Source: Octopus vulgaris (Eukaryota). From it: 64,000 nucleotides of DNA. Position numbers and translations under genes: made by a program. The stretch covers positions 44,082,001 to 44,146,000 of the forward strand of contig OX597838.1 of NCBI GenBank assembly GCA_951406725.2, in the 5' to 3' direction. Of the stretch, positions 17,080-55,666 are shown one piece after another; position 1 is the first letter of the stretch, and each line of letters starts with the position of its first letter. Under the pieces are notes generated by a model that was given only the letters and a program-made list of their open reading frames with translations, was not told where the DNA came from and ran no database searches.

Positions 17080-18711
17080 ATGATAAAAATAAAACTGAAA
17101 CGAAAACTATTGACAAAAAACAACAGCAACAACAAGGACAACAATAAAAATGAACTATCTAATAGTGAAGATGTTAATACGAAAAAATCAACAACATCAG
17201 TAAATTTCGCAGACATTCTTCACCAAAAGAAGGAAATTGTTACATTCACAAATGAAGAGCTCATAGAGACAAGAGCTCTCTTTACAACCCGTGGACAAGA
17301 TTTAGTCTTGCATACACCTCAACATATAAAACAAGAAATAGAAAATAAGACAATTGTATATAAAATTATTAGAAAAACCAAAAAACCAAATGAACAGATT
17401 ACAAAAACTGATGTGGAGAAATGTTTAAAAAACATAATGAAAGAAAAAGAGTATATAAACTGGGGTCCCCAGTTTAACACAGTAGTGGTCCGCTTCCCTA
17501 ACCAGGAAGTGGCAAAAGCTCACTCTACTGAGTCTCTGGGAAATGATGAAATCATCATGGTCCCTTATTATAAAAACCAGAGGGTGAGTAGAATTACTAT
17601 CAGAAATGTACCCCCCGATATGCCGAACAAATGGATAACAGGGGCAATCTGTTACCACTTGAAAAAGATCAATATTTTAGAAACAGCCGTGTACCTAAAC
17701 GACAATTGGGGTGGAAAAACAGTAGTAGTGACCATCCAGATTGAGGGGGCCTCTATCGAGAGCCTACCCGACAAGATATACTTTGAGAATGGGCAATGCC
17801 TATATGTTATGGCAGAAGGCAAAAAGCCTAGATGCTACAAATGTGGCAGCCCCGAACATTTGATTGCCAAGTGCGATCTGGTACAGAAAAAACAAGAAAG
17901 AACAATTCAGAAAACAAATAAAATCCCTTTGTTGCCAACACCAACACCAACACCAACACACTCAATTATGGAACAATGCCAAGAAAAACAACAAACCAGC
18001 AAACAAGCCCCAACAACATCACCAAGAAAAACAGTACCAACACAATCACCGTTGACTTCACAACCAATTAAACCTGTTGAATTAACAAGAAATAGACCCA
18101 CGCCCACACCCAGGACGACAATTAAAAAGACAGAAAACACTGACGAGAAGACAAATGCTACCCCTAACACCACAACAACACAAACACCGCACAAAACATC
18201 AACAATTTATACAAGCATACATAGTAATGCAAATGTTTTGCCTCTACCCCATACTGATACGTCGGACGACGAAAGTTCGACGGAATGGCATATAGCCACA
18301 GGGGGTAAAAGAAAAAGATTCAAAAAATCCACCAAACAAGGAAGTAAAGCAGGGCGATATCTAACTCAGGACAACATCCCCCTAGACAATCAAAAAAGTA
18401 ATGAACCCGTAAAACCACACACACAACTAACTGCAATAGACACAGACAATAAAGAATTAATGGACTACATCAAATCTAACATGGTCGTCTGTGAAGATGA
18501 CTTTAAGACAAACAATCATCCGCACACCACACCACCGAAACACATCAGAATTTTACACATAACACAAGCACAACACCACATACTGAAAACAATATTTCCG
18601 AATGCGGTAGGCGGGTATCAACGATACCTGTCGAAAAAACTATACAAACACCTCATCAAAAACGATACAAAAGAAGAAGAAAAAAATGAAACTTTTAAAA
18701 TGAGTAAGTGA
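17080..18711 (+). CDS. LINE ORF1 nucleic-acid-binding protein (true start probably 16815, with a frameshift near 17115-17120)
   Basis: RRM-like region (ITIRNVPPDM), zinc knuckle CYKCGSPEHLIAKC, low-complexity P/T/K tail. The upstream overlapping ORF 16815-17147 joins it if one A is removed from the A-run. Confidence 0.85.
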   Translation: MIKIKLKRKLLTKNNSNNKDNNKNELSNSEDVNTKKSTTSVNFADILHQKKEIVTFTNEELIETRALFTTRGQDLVLHTPQHIKQEIENKTIVYKIIRKTKKPNEQITKTDVEKCLKNIMKEKEYINWGPQFNTVVVRFPNQEVAKAHSTESLGNDEIIMVPYYKNQRVSRITIRNVPPDMPNKWITGAICYHLKKINILETAVYLNDNWGGKTVVVTIQIEGASIESLPDKIYFENGQCLYVMAEGKKPRCYKCGSPEHLIAKCDLVQKKQERTIQKTNKIPLLPTPTPTPTHSIMEQCQEKQQTSKQAPTTSPRKTVPTQSPLTSQPIKPVELTRNRPTPTPRTTIKKTENTDEKTNATPNTTTTQTPHKTSTIYTSIHSNANVLPLPHTDTSDDESSTEWHIATGGKRKRFKKSTKQGSKAGRYLTQDNIPLDNQKSNEPVKPHTQLTAIDTDNKELMDYIKSNMVVCEDDFKTNNHPHTTPPKHIRILHITQAQHHILKTIFPNAVGGYQRYLSKKLYKHLIKNDTKEEEKNETFKMSK

Positions 18712-18768
18712 CCTCACTTCTTGCCTCTTGTCTCTTCTAATATAGTGTGTAAAACACAATTTTCGTAA

Positions 18769-19704
18769 ATGTCAAGTATGCTTAAATTAGGTTGTGTGAA
18801 TGCGCGTGGCTTGGCGTCGGCTTGGAAGCAAGATTACCTTCTAAACGACATCAAGTCACTGAACGTGGATATAGTAGCTATCAGTGAAACCAGACTCAGT
18901 AAGCTGCGGGCCCTCGAGTCCATGTTTGGCAATCAATTTGACATTTATTTTTTTCCCTGTCTGCCGAACATGGGTGGTGGAGGTACTGCGGTGCTTTTTC
19001 GAAAGAGTCTAAAGGTAAAAGTAAGAGCAATATTCCTAGACCCGGAGGGTAGGCTGGTTGTCTTGGACGTGGATGGCAGAAATGGGTGTGCATTCCGTCT
19101 GATGGCAGTTTATGCACCGTCCTTAACGGGTCGGGCGGATTTCTTCAGACGTCTAGAGGTTTTCCTGGGTACGTCTAGACCTTTACTGTTAGTAGGGGAT
19201 TGGAACGCTACCTTGGACACGCATCTAGATTATGTGGGAAGGGATAGGAATAGAAGGGGGTGTAAGAGCCTCAAAGACCTGCTCAGACGTTTCCATTTGT
19301 CTGACAGGTTCCGACTTGACCATCCGAATGTGCAAACGTGGACTTGGACAAACCGCGTCGGATCGTCGAGATCTTATCTAGATAGAATTCTATGCAGGAC
19401 AGCGGATAGTGTAGGATGTCCACAATTTAAAATAGTCAGCTACACAGATCACAAATTTGTTACGTGTACGCTCGACTTAGATAAAACACATAGGCAGGGT
19501 CCCGGTTACTGGAAACTGAACACGTCGCTGTTAGCGGGACAGGTTTACAGGAACCGGATTAGCGAGTTAATTAAGAGGGCGCTGACGGGAGCGGTCGTTA
19601 ACAACCGCTGGTGGTACGCCCTGAAAATGGCAATAAAATCGGAATCAATTAGGTTTAGCCAGGAATTAGCGATAGAACGAAATAGAGTAGAGGGAGACTT
19701 TTAA
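18769..19704 (+). CDS. LINE ORF2 N-terminal AP endonuclease domain (frameshifted from the RT part)
   Basis: Motifs NARGL, ISET, VYAP, VGDWN, SYLDRI, TDH and WKLN. Confidence 0.93.
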   Translation: MSSMLKLGCVNARGLASAWKQDYLLNDIKSLNVDIVAISETRLSKLRALESMFGNQFDIYFFPCLPNMGGGGTAVLFRKSLKVKVRAIFLDPEGRLVVLDVDGRNGCAFRLMAVYAPSLTGRADFFRRLEVFLGTSRPLLLVGDWNATLDTHLDYVGRDRNRRGCKSLKDLLRRFHLSDRFRLDHPNVQTWTWTNRVGSSRSYLDRILCRTADSVGCPQFKIVSYTDHKFVTCTLDLDKTHRQGPGYWKLNTSLLAGQVYRNRISELIKRALTGAVVNNRWWYALKMAIKSESIRFSQELAIERNRVEGDF

Positions 19705-19744
19705 GAAACTAGAAGAGGCACTTACCACTGGCAGCGCAACCAAC

Positions 19745-22210
19745 GTGCTGGCTGCGAGGATGGCCCTCGACCAACACCTCAACGCCAAGCACGAAGGTTG
19801 CGTCGTCAGAGCTAAAATGCGTGCCTTAAGGAACGAAGGGATTGAAGCTGCGCGAGAGGCCCGGGTAGCGGAGGCGCAGCGTGGCAACAGATCAACCATT
19901 CGGTCTCTAATAGATCAACAGGGATGCAGTTTACTCGAACCCGAAAGGATGTGTGAGGCCTTTCAACAGCACTTTGCTCGACTGTTTGGTGCGAGTGGTG
20001 GGTCGGAACGAGGGATGGATTTCAGTGCCTACCTGACCGACCTGCCGCGGCTCTCGGCAAGAGAAGCGGAGTGTTGTGAAAGTCCCATCGCAGCCGCTGA
20101 CGTGTGGGATGCGATGGCAAGCTGCGCGAGGGATAAGTCGCCCGGATTGGATGGTTTACCCTACGAGCTGTATTGTCGAATGCCAGACTTGTTTGGCGAC
20201 CTCTTGGCATCAGTCTACTGCAACTGGCAACAAAACGGGAGAATCCCCGGTCTCGTGAGCCGAGGTGCAGTGACGTTGCTGAAGAAAGACTCAAACAAGG
20301 GGAATTTTATAGATTATTTCAGGCCCATCACTCTGCTCAACGCAGATTTGAAAATTTTGGCCAAAGTAATAGCCGAGAGGTTGGCGCTTGTCATTGGTAA
20401 ACTGGTCGACAGGGCGCAAACATGCGCCGTGCCGGGCAGAACCATACATGACAACCTCCATCTGATGCGCTACATTGTGGACAGGGTAGTTAAGGATCCT
20501 GGCATGGGTGGGGCGCTGATCAATTTGGATCAGTCTAAAGCCTTCGATAGGGTCGACCATCGGTACTTGGCGGCCGTCCTCAGGGCGTTTGGCTTCGGTC
20601 CCGTCTTCCGCGGTTGGATCGCTGCCTTGTATAGCGGCATCCGATCGGTGATTCGGGTGAACGGTCACCTGTCGAAACCGTTTGACATCACGCGTTCGGT
20701 CCGTCAGGGGTGTCCCCTGTCGGCGCTTCTGTATGTATTGACTCTCGAGCCGCTACTGCGGAAGCTGGCGACACTGAGGGGCATCCCACGGGAACTGGGT
20801 TGCGGGACGAGCGTGTCGGCATATGCGGACGATGTCACCGTCATAGTGTCGAGCGACAAACACATCAAGATGATAGGCGAGACACTAAGAAAATACGAAA
20901 CGGTGACGGGGGCGAAGATTAACCCGGAAAAGTCAGTGGGTTTGCTACTCGGCACCTGGAGAACCAAGCCCATGCCTTCCGACTACGGCTCAGTAGTGGG
21001 ACGCTGGACGGACGGACCGGTTAAATTGCTCGGGGTCTGGTTCAGTCCGGACCTCCAAATGGAGAAGAACTGGGACGAGATCACGAGTAGAGTGGTCGCT
21101 CTCAGCCAAACATGGGCCGAGAGAAAGCTGTCTCTAAAAGGCCGGGCGGAGGTGGCGAACGCGTACATCGCATCCGTCATCGATTACCGCCTGACCGTCG
21201 TGCCTTGTCCCGACGCCACCATCACCAAACTGGAACGCATACTCTTCCGCTTCCTGTGGAAGGGTGGCGTTCCGATGGTGAGGAAGTCCATTTGCTGTCA
21301 ACATCCGTTGAATGGAGGACTGGGCATGCCGTGGTTGATGATGCGCAGGCATGCGCTGAGACTGCGACATCTCTGGAAATTCATCGACGACGGTGAACAG
21401 GTGTGGGCGCCGTTTGTGAGGCGCGCCTTCCCGCAGCTCGTCTCACTGACCGAACTGCAAACGTGGATCAAAAAGAGACCGAAACTGGGCGATTGGCACC
21501 GAGAGTGTCGCCAAGCTCTACAGCAGCTCTGCCGACCCGGGTCAAACTTGTGCAACTTCCAAACGACTAAAGCGTTCTATAGAGGACTAGTGGAGGGGAG
21601 GTCCGACGACACACTCGGGGCAAACCTGGGCGTCGACGAGGAATTCCTAAGCCGCCTGTTCAGAACGACGTTCGGGCTGGGGCCTATGGATAACTTCCAG
21701 AAATCCCTGGCTTGGCAGTGCTATCGAGACGCACTACCTGTTCGAGAGAAGAGCTACAGACACGGTTCGAAAACCATCACCGGACCGACCTGCCCGAGAT
21801 GCGGTCAGAGCGACGAAACCGTTCTGCACGCACTCGTGCAGTGTCCAGATATTTCAGAGCTGTGGTCCTTCGTCGAACAGCTGTTGTCACGTGTAGGTCA
21901 GGCTCGCCTATCGGCCGAGTCTATCGTGAGTATTGTTCCACCACCTTCCTTTAAACGGGAAGGGAAAACGGTTTTCGTTACGCTGATGGCTATGGCGAAA
22001 GAATGTGTGTGGTGGACGCGTTTGAAAGGACTGCAAACAAACACCTTCCTCTCTGGTCAGTCTCTCGTCAACTTTTTCAAGTACCACTTGAAAAGGAGGA
22101 TGAGAATAGAGAGGAAGGCTTTGTCGAACGAATGTTTTAATAAAAAGTGGGTAAAAGTGGCAAAAATGGTCAGTATGAAAGACGACACTATTTTAAGCAT
22201 AAATCTGTAA
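19745..22210 (+). CDS. LINE ORF2 reverse transcriptase + C-terminal CCHC (continuation after a frameshift at about 19700)
   Basis: KSPGLDG, FRPITLLN, DQSKAFDRVDH, VRQGCPLS, YADD, GGLG and CPRCGQSDETVLHALVQC. Confidence 0.96.
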   Translation: MLAARMALDQHLNAKHEGCVVRAKMRALRNEGIEAAREARVAEAQRGNRSTIRSLIDQQGCSLLEPERMCEAFQQHFARLFGASGGSERGMDFSAYLTDLPRLSAREAECCESPIAAADVWDAMASCARDKSPGLDGLPYELYCRMPDLFGDLLASVYCNWQQNGRIPGLVSRGAVTLLKKDSNKGNFIDYFRPITLLNADLKILAKVIAERLALVIGKLVDRAQTCAVPGRTIHDNLHLMRYIVDRVVKDPGMGGALINLDQSKAFDRVDHRYLAAVLRAFGFGPVFRGWIAALYSGIRSVIRVNGHLSKPFDITRSVRQGCPLSALLYVLTLEPLLRKLATLRGIPRELGCGTSVSAYADDVTVIVSSDKHIKMIGETLRKYETVTGAKINPEKSVGLLLGTWRTKPMPSDYGSVVGRWTDGPVKLLGVWFSPDLQMEKNWDEITSRVVALSQTWAERKLSLKGRAEVANAYIASVIDYRLTVVPCPDATITKLERILFRFLWKGGVPMVRKSICCQHPLNGGLGMPWLMMRRHALRLRHLWKFIDDGEQVWAPFVRRAFPQLVSLTELQTWIKKRPKLGDWHRECRQALQQLCRPGSNLCNFQTTKAFYRGLVEGRSDDTLGANLGVDEEFLSRLFRTTFGLGPMDNFQKSLAWQCYRDALPVREKSYRHGSKTITGPTCPRCGQSDETVLHALVQCPDISELWSFVEQLLSRVGQARLSAESIVSIVPPPSFKREGKTVFVTLMAMAKECVWWTRLKGLQTNTFLSGQSLVNFFKYHLKRRMRIERKALSNECFNKKWVKVAKMVSMKDDTILSINL

Positions 22211-26194: not shown

Positions 26195-27326
<1,132 letters not shown>

Positions 27327-29938: not shown

Positions 29939-32146
29939 AAAAGATCAAGATAGAAAATGCTAAAATAATTTTATAAAAAATCATTTCAGTACCGGTTTCA
30001 TTCATTAGAAAAGTTTTTTTAAAAGAATATTTGTATAGTGTTCAAATACAAGTGGCATTTCCCTTGTTTCTGCCTGTCTCTGTCTCTCTTGTTTACTCTT
30101 GTGGGTTCGAGGTCATTGTGAATTCTTGGTAGGGAAGAAGAAAAAGAAGAAGGAGGAGGAGGAGGAGAAGGGAAGAAGAAAAAGAAGAAGAAGGAGGAGG
30201 AGGGGGAGAAGGAAGAAGAAAAAGAAGAATTTGGGAGTGCCATTTTGATTGGTCAGTGGATGGTAGCAATTGCTGTTCAATTCATGAAAATATTTCTATT
30301 GAATGTTTTGCTTATAGAATTTGCGTAGGTATCATTCTAAAAAGCATTAGTGATAAAGTTAGGAAGGAGAAGGAAGGAGAAGGAAGCAGGGGGAGAAGAA
30401 GAAGAAGAAGAAGAAGAAGAAGAAGAAGAAGAAGAAGAGGAAAGAGAAGGGAGAATAAGAATGAATGTAGGTAGTGTGAAAGTAGTAAGGTGTTAAATGA
30501 CTTAAAATTGGCACCTAATGGATTATAGCAGTGATTTGGATTGTTTTTTAATGAATTCTTGGGAATCTCTTGAGTGTATCATTTTTGATATTTGCGTGTG
30601 TATTTGTGTTATTCTAAGGCCGGGGTGGATATGTCGTTTGTCGTAGACGCGTTCAGAAGGGGCCTGTATTTTGTAATAAAGAGAGTTTATTTACTAATTC
30701 GTTGGCTCCAGGTTGTATCGTTCCTGAATTGGTAGAGGGGAAAAATCCTGAAGCTTGGATTTTTGTTGTTGGCGCAAGTATCTATGTGTTGGCTGCATGC
30801 TATTTTTCTGTTTTGGGAAACTTTTATCTGGGATCTGTGCGGGGCCATTATTTTACGTAAACTATTTTTCGTTTGGCCTATGTATTGCTCTTGACACCTA
30901 GAGCAGGTTAATGTGTATATCAGGTTCTCCGAAGCACACGTGAAGTTGCTTTTCACTGTGAAACGCTGTCCCTGTTTGAAGGAGAACTCTGATCCCTCAA
31001 TTAGATAATCGCATATCCCACAATTGGGTCTTCCACATGTTTTTACAGTCGGCTTCTGTGTTGTTGAGCGTATTCGGGCTTGTGTTATGAGACTTTTCAT
31101 ACATTTGGGCTATCTCTTGCTTTTATGATGGTGTGTGTTTGGAGGATTATGTTCATTCTGTGGTCTTTTTTTAGCAGGGGTCTGTTTTGGAGGATGGTGT
31201 CGAAGGCTTCATTGTTAAGAGGGTTGTGTGTGGAGATGTATGGTAAGGCTTTTGGTAGTAAATCTTTCTTTAATTTGGGATGTCTGTGTTCCTGGATGTT
31301 GAGTTGAATGCATATGTCAATTAGTGATGAGTGTATCTTTTATTTCATGTAGTCGTGTCTCTGCTGTTTGCATAAGAAACTATAGTACATATCCTTTTTA
31401 CTAGGTTGAAGGGGATGTTCATTTTGGTGTGTCTGGGGTGGCATGAATTTAATGGAAGATATTGCTTAGAATCCGTAGGCTTATAGTATATATCTGTTTC
31501 TATTGCGTTATTAGATTTCTTAATGAGGATGTCGAGGAAGGGGAGTTGTTGCTGGCTATATTCCATCGTGAATTGGATGTTTACGTCCAGTCCATTTAAA
31601 ATTGTTTGGAATTCTTTGAGTTTCTCTATATTTTCATGCCAAAGAATGAAACAGTCATCTAGGTATCTCTTCCAGTTGTTTTCTATGTTTAGGGGAAAAG
31701 GGCTGCCATATCTTTCTAGAACCTTACGATACAGACTGATTTCTAGATATCCCATGGCTAGGTCGGCAAAGGAGGGGGGCCATTCGCGTACCCATCGCAG
31801 TCCCCGATTTTTGTCGGTAGAAGTTGTCTTTGAAAGCGAAGTAGTTATTTTCCAGGATGAATTTAACCCCTTCTATCACGAATTCTTTTTTGATGCGATG
31901 TGGGAGTTCGTTGGCGTAATTCTCTAGCCAGAATTGAATTGCCTCTATTCCTAGGATGTTGGAATAGAGGTTGACTACATCGAAGGATACTAGTAGGGTG
32001 TTTTTGTTTATTCTTTTAGGCAGGTGATTGAGCATATCCAGGTCGTCCCTTATATAGCTTTTGACATGTTTGAGGAGTGGTTTTAAGAGGGCATCTAAAA
32101 AGTTACTGACGCGGTGGGTTTCGCATGCGGGACCTGCTATTATAGG

Positions 32147-41559: not shown

Positions 41560-42330
41560 GTGTCTTAAGTAACGAGAAAACAATAGCATTACATCAACAG
41601 AGAGAGAACAATATGAAAAAACGATCGATGATGAAGGAATCATGATATTAAGTAGACTGCATCTATTTTCTCTTTATTTTTTCTTGGCAAACTTTTATCA
41701 CAGAATATTCAGAATAATGAATATTAAAGAAATATATGTAAGCTTTGCTTCACACCAGGTCTCTGTTTTCTTATGCATTTCTTCTTCTGTTTAGTGTCGT
41801 TAGATGAGAAGACACCATCGTCAAACGTCTTAACAGCAAACATATTATAAGGTAGCATGAGACTAAGATCATTTGACATCATATAAGAAGACAAAGCCTT
41901 GAACACCTTTTGACAAATGGAATTCTGAATGGAAGAAGAAAACTGAGAGGATGCTCATAGAAAAGATGTCCTTACATGTTGGCTACAAAAAGTACCGATC
42001 CCGTAATTTGATAAATTGTGTGCGGTATTACGACGTAAGAGGAGAAATTCTGGGATCGTTGCAAGACGAACTGCTGCACTGATGCCCAGTGGTGAACATG
42101 TTTTCCTCGATCAAGAGCGAAAGACGGATATTCGACGACAAACAGACAGCGCCGTAGCACTGACCATAAATGAAACCGACTGGTGCTCAGCCGACGTTTG
42201 ACTCGTTGGGATGGAATGTGCCCTGTGTGGGAAACCATAGTCGGTTTCAGGGAGAGTATGGTTGCATAACACAAATTTGTTGTTGGGGTCCACGATCAGC
42301 ATGGATGATCATGGAAGAGGACAGAATGAC
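41560..42330 (+). mobile_element. Old RTE LINE 3' fragment
   Basis: HHIRRQSLEHLLTNGILNGRRKLRGCS resembles the RTE C-terminal GH..R...LE.L...G...G.R.RGR motif. Boundaries are approximate. Confidence 0.55.
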
Positions 42331-47180: not shown

Positions 47181-47787
47181 TAGGGTTCAGCAACGATTAG
47201 CTTCACCACACACCGAACTTTAGAAATAGCAGTCAAAATCTTAGCTATTCTTTCTACTTTAAAGGGAGTTCCCAGAAAAACCAAAGCACTTGAAAACAAA
47301 CCACGTAGGCAAAAGGGTAAAAAATGACGAAAAGCATTCTATAATAGGTTACCTACGGACGCGCGTTTCGGAATTAAGCCAGTATAAAGCATAAATAATA
47401 AATAATCATACCTTACCCGACTATTTTCGTTTCTTCAGCGTAGGATTCCACAATCATAAATAATTGTATATTAAATTTGAAGGCACTGGAAAACATCACT
47501 TCACCTAACGTTATCAGAGAGATCATATTCCGTGTTAGTGCCGCCAAATTCAAAAAATGAATGAGAGTAAGTCATCCTCCCTCGCCCACCAGCGTGTTGC
47601 CAAAGTAAGATGGCAGCCATTATGTCTTTCACGGTTCACTTACTTGCTTGAAAATTAAATTCCCCTTTTGCCTACGTGGTTTGTTTTCAAGTGCTTTGGT
47701 TTTTCTGGGAACTCCCTTTAAAGTAGAAGGAATAGCTAAGATTTTGACTGCTATTTCTAAACTTTGGTGTGTGGTGAAGCTAATCGT
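47181..47787 (-). mobile_element. Foldback element with an HHR in the loop
   Basis: Near-perfect 125-bp inverted arms at 47193-47317 and 47663-47787. Confidence 0.85.
47352..47444 (-). ncRNA. Type I hammerhead ribozyme motif with long G-U-rich helix II
   Basis: cctacg CTGAAGA ...agtcgggtaaggtat/atgctttatactggct... GAAAC gcgc GTC cgtagg. Perfect 6-bp helix I; palindromic helix III. Confidence 0.82.
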
Positions 47788-48477
47788 ACATTTTCTAACG
47801 TAGTAATTTGTTATTTGAGAGAAATTTAGTTGTTAATTTTAGCAAAATAAATTATTTTCTTCAACAAAGTGGTAGATAACTCTTAAGAGTATGACAGATA
47901 TATTTTACGATGGAAAAATCGTTTGTGCAATGTTTCGATTACAAACACATACAAATGTAGATTTGTGCGTGTGTGCATATGTGTGTTTGTGTGTGCATAT
48001 ATAGATAAATGTATGCTTGTGTGTATGTGTATATTTGTGTGTGCGTACATGTCTGCGTGTGTCTCATGCATACCACCATTATATTGTTATTAATTAGTTC
48101 AAACCAGCATTAATCAAACAGATAAATGATCAAGTTGTTCCAAATGTGACCATTCTGTCCTAATTTTCCTTTTTAAGCGTTGTATATCAATGACTATATC
48201 ATCTGTATGCTTTTTTTTGTTTCTAGTTTATCAAATCAGCAAGGGAGGATAAATGGGACAATGAATTTCTCCCCGTTTCAAAGAATTCCGAGATAAATCA
48301 TAGATTTCCACCGTAAAGTATACTAGCCATCCGAATATGGCTAACCACAAAGGGTGGGTGTTACTGTAGCTTTTAGCCCCAGGAGATCATCGTCTCCAGC
48401 TGGCTTTAGACACACTTTCTGTGCCTTTAGGATATTTTCAAAGGGAGGTCATCCCTCTCTCGTAAACCTAAGTGATA

Positions 48478-48523
48478 CGCACGGACTGCAGTTTCGAGGT
48501 AATTTGCCTCTTGTCAACGTACG
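48478..48523 (-). ncRNA. Type I hammerhead motif, U3-A8 variant (left-arm copy)
   Basis: Exact reverse complement of 48839-48884. Confidence 0.75.
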
Positions 48524-48590
48524 GTAATCACCGGTTTTCGATATAGATATTCGCAAACAGGTCTCTCTTCATCGAAAACCGGTGATTACC

Positions 48591-48822
48591 TATTTCTTTA
48601 TTACCCACAAGGGGCTAAACACAGAGGGGACAAACAAGGACAGACATAGGTATTAAGTCGATTACATCGACCCCAGTGCGTAACTGGTACTTAATTTATC
48701 GACCCCGAAAGGATGAAAGGTAAAGTCGACCTCGGCGGAATTTGAACTCACAACGTAACGCAGACGAAATACCGCTAAGCATTTCGCCCGGCGTGCTAAC
48801 GTTTCTGCCAGCTCGCCGCCCT
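48591..48822 (-). mobile_element. tRNA-derived SINE, family B (Meta-domain-like core, Tx1-like tail)
   Basis: Core ctttcatcctttcggggtcgataaattaagtacc. 16-bp TSD aaaaccggtgattacc at 48575-48590 and 48824-48839. Confidence 0.92.
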
Positions 48823-48838
48823 AAAAACCGGTGATTAC

Positions 48839-48884
48839 CGTACGTTGACAAGAGGCAAATTACCTCGAAACTGCAGTCCGTGCG
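48839..48884 (+). ncRNA. Type I hammerhead motif, U3-A8 variant
   Basis: cgtacg TTGACAA gagg caaatta cctc GAAAC tgca GTC cgtgcg. 6-bp helix I, 4-bp helix II with G10.1-C11.1, palindromic helix III. Confidence 0.78.
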
Positions 48885-49912
48885 TATCACTTAGGCTTAC
48901 GAGAGAGGGATGACCTCCCTTTGCAAATATCCTAAGAGCACAGAAAGTGTGTCTAAAGCCAGCTGGAGACAATGATCTCCTGGGGTTAAAAGCTACAGCA
49001 ACACCCACCCTTTGTGGTTAGCCATATTCAGATGGCTAGTATACTTTACGTTGTCGAGCAGTTACTGTTTACATCTCGAGCAGAGATTTATTATTGCTCA
49101 TAGATTTCCATTTCTCTTTTATTTTCCCAAAGCAATCTTCCGTGTGTCACCTGTATTTTCTTTTTCTTTTCTACAAATATGTACCGGCTTTTTCCTTCTT
49201 CAGCTTTGTTTATTCGTTTGACAGATCCTAATTAAATATTGTTGTGACTGACATTCAAGGGTTTCTTTCGGCATGGCAGTCCAGGAAGTACCTATTTCCT
49301 ATCCAGCATATGGAAAATGTGTTGAACTCAGACAGCTCCTCTGCTTTTGATAGAGTTCGTTTTTCACTCATGGTGAGTATCCATGAATTATCTTCATTCT
49401 GCAAACTCGATACGCTTACTGTTTATTCACCGACCAGTCGACTGTGGACAAATAGCACTAAATGATTTCATGGTTTGTAGCAGCAGATCTCCATTAGCAA
49501 GTCGATTATTAGGTTATGAAAGCAATTCATTGTTTATATTTATTTTTATCTTTATTTATCATGAACGATTTGAACAAATCAATCGCTACTATATTCGTCT
49601 TCATTGTCCACGACTTCTTGCAAACGTTCCACTCAGTTGTCAATGCTTTAACCGTAGAAAGCAGAGAGCTTTGCCTCGAGGAGTTCAACGCTGCACATTT
49701 TTAATTCCACGTCGTTACTGAAGCATATCACAGAAAGTTGGAGAGCAACAATAAAAAGCAATCACGTGAAGGGGAAGAATACAATAGGAACTGCGGAACT
49801 CCGAAGCTGTGCTTTTGAATAGCATTTTTGGTCAAATTAGCGACGTTGGGATTGGAGTTTGTCTCTATTATACAGAGCATGTAGCACCCACTCACCGAGT
49901 TTTTGGACTTAC

Positions 49913-55378: not shown

Positions 55379-55434
55379 ATGTAACGACATTGCTTCTATG
55401 AATACACGCACAGGCACATTCATACATAAACACA

Positions 55435-55666
55435 GGGCGGCGAGCTGGCAGAGTGGTTAGCACGCCGGGCGAAATACTTAGCGTTATTTCGTCTGCCGTT
55501 ACGTTCTGAGTTCAAATTCTGCCGAGGTCGACTTTGCCTTTCATCCTTTCGGGGTCGATTAAATAAGTACCAGTTACGCACTGGGGTCGATATAATCGAC
55601 TTAATCCGTTTGTCTGTCCTTGTTTGTCCTCTCTATTTTTAGCCCCTTGTGGGCAATAAAGAAATA
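55435..55666 (+). mobile_element. SINE family B copy
   Basis: Homologous to the reverse complement of 48591-48822. Confidence 0.9.

Follow-up and report, generated by a model that had tools for sequence, protein, structure and literature searches.

Metazoan non-LTR retrozymes consist of tandem non-coding units of a few hundred nucleotides, with one type I hammerhead ribozyme in each. They are low in GC, carry target-site duplications (TSDs) of more than 4 bp and co-occur with Penelope-like elements (PLEs) (PMC7229834; bioRxiv 10.64898/2026.07.22.740005). It has been proposed that retrozymes derive from PLEs and are non-autonomous, and one of nine predicted retrozyme dimers from Xenopus was found to cleave (bioRxiv 10.64898/2026.07.22.740005). 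A self-complementary stem III is the expected feature of dimer-type cleavage (PMC4209133, PMC6765202). Insertions of EN+ Penelope-like elements are described as an inverted, 5′-truncated copy with a tail of 30–40 nt at one end and two fixed ends, with a bias towards AT-rich microsatellites (PMC8557442, PMC11167929). Studies in vitro have placed the tail between two internal reverse-transcription starts, with both DNA strands being cut and extended. Insertion in vitro was independent of hammerhead cleavage and was not reduced with hammerhead mutants (PMC11167929).

The pair formed by core positions 3 and 8 is known to vary. Natural covariation to U3-A8 was reported in 2011, the variant being reported as active in vitro (PMC3088659), and about 1,300 U3-A8 hits were described in 2014 in the Cercyon PLEs of Schistosoma mansoni (PMC4209133). 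The U3-A8 core is already published, including in PLEs, and is not new. A pairwise mutational scan found that only G3-C8 rescued in the 3-8 region and that core mutants were low, and it suggests low activity for U3·G8 (PMC9901934). A search of the literature by title turned up no account of natural U3·G8 cores that have been amplified; earlier rates or examples may exist. The main text of the 2026 octopus repeat annotation (PMC13282606) does not contain the terms hammerhead, retrozyme or ribozyme.

The element studied here lies in a 64-kb stretch of Octopus vulgaris DNA, referred to as the window. It is an ordinary retrozyme copy carrying the published core variant. The whole is probably best read as a head-to-head insertion of a non-coding repeat of approximately 355 nt, with a predicted dimer-type hammerhead in each unit, likely copied by the reverse transcriptase of a Penelope-like element; the U3-A8 core of this copy is an inherited subfamily state, and across the clade the 3-8 pair likely varies by drift between C-G, U·G and U-A. 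Its features, in window coordinates, are as follows:

48298..48310, no strand: left 13-bp TSD, TCATAGATTTCCA, repeated exactly at 49098-49110
48311..48542, minus strand: inverted arm of the retrozyme unit, ending at the "short" end of the family (unit position about 219-227)
48478..48523, minus strand: type I hammerhead motif with a U3-A8 core from the descriptor scan; U3 at 48517, A8 at 48512, predicted cut after C17 at 48484
48543..48590, plus strand: 5′ part of the forward arm, starting at the inversion junction; unit positions about 321-357 and on, by blastn against a natural unit
48575..48590, no strand: left 16-bp TSD of the SINE-like insert, with its right copy at 48824-48839
48591..48823, presumed minus strand: 233-bp repeat that we take to be SINE-like, a later insertion outside the retrozyme; 92% identical copy at 55434-55666 and eight weaker matches in the window
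48824..49050, plus strand: forward arm of the retrozyme unit, from the arm comparison
48839..48884, plus strand: type I hammerhead motif with a U3-A8 core, its stem III being the palindrome ACUGCAGU; U3 at 48845, A8 at 48850, predicted cut after C17 at 48878
49051..49097, plus strand: 47-nt "tail" on this arm only, ending at the second fixed end of the family (unit position about 264-272)
49098..49110, no strand: right 13-bp TSD, a perfect match to 48298-48310

Without the SINE-like insert, the inverted arm (48311-48542) is joined to the forward arm (48543-49097), which extends 47 nt further on the outer side. The original prediction was of a young foldback insertion at 48311..49097. Its two arms are real, but the 233 bp in the middle are a separate repeat with its own 16-bp TSD, and the copy is only moderately young because the arms differ at 8 of 227 positions. 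The claims of a 13-bp TSD and of a non-coding, retro-mobilised element stand: the duplication is perfect and exceeds 4 bp, there is no LTR, and no open reading frame (ORF) of at least 150 aa was found at the locus. Six departures from the subfamily majority are common to both arms. This indicates one template lineage, so the two identical hammerhead motifs amount to one piece of evidence. Just upstream of the element there is a further inverted pair (47193-47320 and 47660-47787) of 128 nt and 97% complementarity.

The motif reads CGTACG-TTGACAA-GAGG/CCTC-GAAAC-TGCA-GTC-CGTGCG and, as had been noted, has the same letters in both arms, at 48839-48884 on the plus strand and 48523-48478 on the minus strand. 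A relaxed type I hammerhead descriptor run on both strands of the 64-kb window gave no match beyond these two. Stem I is CGUACG/CGUGCG, stem II is GAGG/CCUC, and stem III has 2 bp with the palindrome. The three stems surround a core with G12-A13-A14, A15.1-U16.1 and H17, which bears out the predicted hammerhead fold, and the departures from CUGANGA are confined, as claimed, to positions 3 and 8. On this basis a self-cleaving hammerhead RNA is predicted to be encoded by the repeat. The expectation that standard searches would miss the variant also proved correct. The Rfam model Hammerhead_1 (RF00163), which has C3-G8 as its consensus, gave no match to the window copy at E<=10 and no hammerhead match to one U3·G8 sister copy, but it finds a C3-G8 sister unit at E 5.5e-6 and 32.2 bits, slightly below the gathering score of 34. 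Both U3 copies tried were thus missed, the canonical models failing through the U3-A8 core, or U3·G8 in the sisters, and it is in this core that the family differs from the retrozymes described to date. It shares the swap, in PLE-associated sequence, with Cercyon and the earlier U3-A8 covariants. Here, however, the swap sits in a retrozyme hammerhead of canonical size, beside amplified U3·G8 and C3-G8 sisters, and U3·G8 is not mentioned in the relevant parts of those reports (PMC4209133, PMC3088659). Among the best 150 of 306 rows of an Rfam scan of the whole window, there was only microsatellite or miRNA noise and a decayed piece of eukaryotic SSU rRNA (41722-42314, plus strand, 63.9 bits).

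The window arm belongs to a family dispersed in the 2.8-Gb genome. Its unit is 353–358 nt long, within the 150–450 bp of tandem non-LTR retrozyme units, with one type I hammerhead motif each, and tandem arrays hold up to 10 motifs. The low GC content, TSDs above 4 bp and co-occurring PLEs of the described retrozymes are likewise found. Among the loci examined, 85 of 185 distinct insertions are head-to-head, and in 65 of these 85 one arm has a short end (unit position 210–235) and the other a tail end (255–285), giving two fixed insertion ends about 45–50 nt apart. Where they can be read, the TSDs are mainly 12–13 bp long; this length is present in 22 of the 85, some of them in (TA)n, and 19 gave no TSD. 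Many of the targets are (TA)n. The inverted copy, the one-sided tail and the two fixed ends match the signature of PLE insertions (PMC8557442, PMC11167929) and hence support insertion of the Penelope type. The AT-rich microsatellite bias is also shared, whereas the window family is without an ORF and has a tail of about 45–50 nt in place of 30–40 nt. One insertion (L111, G000:C29:13362000-13365500) has a U3-A8 unit of subfamily A in tandem with a U3·G8 unit of subfamily B, a combination suggestive of template switching or of mixed multimers.

The mobilisation scheme that this would imply begins with tandem transcripts that may self-cleave as dimers via the palindromic stem III, yielding monomers or circles. 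A PLE protein would then nick both DNA strands and start reverse transcription at two internal sites, and these two starts could produce the foldback with its one-sided tail. Intact ORFs of 781 aa with reverse transcriptase (RT) and GIY-YIG domains are present in the genome. Of 148 GIY-YIG matches, 42 loci were checked, and no PLE terminal repeat homologous to the unit was found at them; the search scored 150 of 6136 candidates. Retrozyme pieces occur at three of the 42 PLE loci; as parts of the PLE they were rejected for the two inspected (L268 and L273), where they are separate insertions. An abundant autonomous PLE, present in many near-identical copies with the 781-aa RT and GIY-YIG ORF, has a hammerhead-like motif with U3-A8 close to its 3′ end, and shows no DNA homology to the retrozyme unit (L239-L246, L250, L254-L256, L258, L260, L267, L262).

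The state of the 3-8 pair depends on the subfamily. Among the closest relatives of the window copy (the 30 best BLAST loci), all 32 distinct copies are U3-A8 and read TTGAYAA. These copies are used in place of a figure of 75 of 78 for subfamily A, which is biased because many of its copies were fetched with patterns containing the core. U3-A8 is therefore the inherited state of this subfamily, as the original prediction held, rather than the decay of a single copy, and the consensus here is not CTGACGA. The further claim that T3 and A8 are fixed together holds in this subfamily but fails across the clade. One wider exact pattern matched C3-G8 502 times, U3·G8 422 times, U3-A8 306 times and C3·A8 four times, these being counts of exact-match motifs rather than insertions, in which older copies are under-counted and a U3-A8 lineage with a 2-nt loop III is left out. 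U3 accounts for 728 of these 1,234 clade matches, and C3·A8 for 4 of the 506 with C3. Most numerous of all is the C3-G8 subfamily. When the flanks of the window copy served as the pattern, there were 95 matches with U3-A8, 40 with U3·G8, one each with U3-U8 and A3-G8, and none with C3. By eye, the TGCA loop of the window subfamily was absent from the first 100 of the 422 U3·G8 matches listed. A separate, older hammerhead family with GUGC/GCAC as its stem II also has U3-A8, U3·G8 and C3-G8 copies (L173, L175, L177, L180, L182, L186, L198).

The history of the pair was followed in a FastTree phylogeny with positions 3 and 8 masked and in 30-row IQ-TREE trees of segments. The masked tree forms a ladder running from C (C3-G8) through A (U3-A8, the window subfamily), then B, B2 and E (U3·G8), then G and H (U3-A8), to D (U3·G8). 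On this ladder there is one change at position 3, and at position 8 there are at least three while U3 stays fixed; three or more changes are also seen in 11 of 163 background columns. Position 8 is the G of a CpG, so that A8 represents a transition from CpG to CpA, and toggling is as frequent at the neighbouring CpG (11.1/12), where C11.1 changes four times. The tree is mosaic and fixes neither its root nor the order and direction of the changes at position 8: segment 151-222 groups A with C, against an A+B clade (AU p=0.0007), whereas segment 1-150, which holds the hammerhead, gives p=0.23 for that clade. Median divergence from the subfamily majority is 0.9% in C1 (n=25), 0.5% in D1 (n=7) and 0.9% in E1 (n=8), in comparison with 2.7% in A (n=78), 3.6% in B (n=49) and 4.5% in H (n=4). 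The low values for D1 and E1 indicate that U3·G8 lineages were mobile recently; these lineages have TSDs and dimers of their own. In the amplified subfamilies B2, E, D0 and C2, the G10.1-C11.1 pair, as a rule conserved, is found as G·U, mostly alongside U3·G8.

The comparison of sequences supports selection on the entire hammerhead, and the fold is likely maintained in the clade. Over 11 subfamily majorities, 10 of 10 core bases outside positions 3 and 8 show no change, whereas among background positions 66 of 163 are invariant (Fisher p=2e-4; p=0.004 in an index-corrected version with 12 bases). G5, A6, A9, G12, A13, A14, the 15.1-16.1 pair and C17 are unchanged despite subfamily divergence of up to 39%. 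When each subfamily is represented by a single natural copy, pairing is seen in 98.2% of 219 cells, and seven pairs have changed on both sides. None of 500 shuffles equals this; as the subfamilies are related, the counts and shuffles are not independent and kin can beat shuffles without structure, yet controls slid along the sequence drop to 24–53%. Both parts of stem I have such double changes, as does the palindrome of loop III. By duplex energies, the stem III palindrome is self-complementary in six sequence forms besides that of the window. The 3-8 pair is pairable in all 11 subfamily examples (six U·G, three U-A and two C-G). A lower core mutation rate inside subfamilies was rejected as evidence of selection, many copies having been retrieved by patterns that contain the core.

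The original prediction attributed the swap to selection on ribozyme function rather than decay. Selection on the structure is upheld, by other positions; the part concerning A8 is not, since U3·G8 outnumbers U3-A8 and has amplified recently, and a compensatory pair is no proof by itself. The A8 swap is likely not specially selected, given that sister lineages with the looser U-G pair have spread more widely. A version of the earlier claim in which U3·G8 is a handicapped intermediate and A8 is selected as it restores fast cleavage appears unlikely to us. Two or more separate amplified lineages (A and G/H) have A8 fixed, C3·A8 never amplifies, and U3-A8, with its reported activity in vitro (PMC3088659), is also found in the abundant autonomous PLE and in the older, unrelated-looking family, all of which fit such a restoration. 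It conflicts with the numbers and youth of the U3·G8 subfamilies (D1 and E1 against A), with the place of the U3·G8 lineage D beyond the U3-A8 lineages in the tree, and with the change of G8 to A being a CpG transition of the kind by which C11.1 toggles. Still less probable is that U3 cores are slow or dead and spread from uncut tandem transcripts, with protein binding or some other cause, or else recent inheritance, accounting for the preserved fold. The invariance of the catalytic bases and of the 15.1-16.1 pair at such divergence speaks against it, as does the rebuilding of the dimer palindrome by double changes inside U3 lineages. It draws on the indifference of PLE insertion in vitro to hammerhead mutants (PMC11167929), on the single cleaving dimer among the nine from Xenopus (bioRxiv 10.64898/2026.07.22.740005) and on the low core mutants of the mutational scan (PMC9901934). 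The weakening of stem II to G10.1·U11.1 in several U3·G8 subfamilies and the predominance of the C3-G8 subfamily point the same way. As for a foldback or MITE-type DNA transposon in which the hammerhead is incidental, long inverted arms flanked by a TSD are what it would leave; the variable arm lengths and inner junctions, the head-to-tail arrays and the extra tail on one arm make it highly improbable.

The preferred reading is that of an inherited core whose 3-8 pair would need only to be pairable, with U3 arising once and G8 and A8 then alternating by CpG transitions. We advance more tentatively, as a serious possibility, that the clade records a catalytic-core pair crossing a fitness valley via a G·U wobble. 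U3·G8 would then be a working core in hundreds of recently mobilised copies; with U3 staying constant, position 8 would flip between G and A again and again, C3·A8 being excluded. If this is true, the hammerhead consensus becomes Y3-R8 without C-A, and searches now miss a large class of genomic ribozymes. The U3·G8 sisters are the more interesting lead in comparison with the flagged U3-A8 core, itself a further example of a published variant. The matched natural sisters with C3-G8, U3·G8 and U3-A8 share nearly the same sequence frame and would allow a direct test of how much cleavage a retrozyme requires for its spread; they also bear on whether hammerhead activity matters for mobilisation of the Penelope type.

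Four sequencing runs, guessed to be RNA, gave contigs with pieces of the family, which show neither ends nor strand and were set aside as evidence of expression; among the datasets containing the family, none is recorded as RNA. Runs bearing the labels organism A, C, D and E, four in all, gave contigs that span the hammerhead and have no variant row at position 3 or 8; as contigs drop variants, they speak for presence only.

Within the window there are also fragments resembling a PLE endonuclease and RT (26440-26916 and 31345-31872, minus strand), which by eye are similar to regions of L262, and a nearly intact LINE (17080-22210, plus strand) with an ORF1 of 543 aa and an ORF2 split into 311 and 839 aa. 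By eye, this LINE resembles those beside retrozymes in L072 and L078. In several subfamilies, a LINE with endonuclease and RT domains, which we infer to be Tx1-like, enters at a single fixed site that lies upstream of the hammerhead core by about 30 nt. Eight 3′ junctions in seven loci, with a duplication of ~14 bp, fall at this site, a specificity that applies to loci picked for holding a retrozyme. The loci with a LINE near the hammerhead are L072 (G000:C9:20044500-20054499), which has a nested second insertion, L002, L033, L041, L067, L096, L117 and L126. The SINE-like insert of the window (48575-48839, with its TSDs) lies within a few bases of the site used by this LINE, immediately next to stem I of the hammerhead on the 5′ side.
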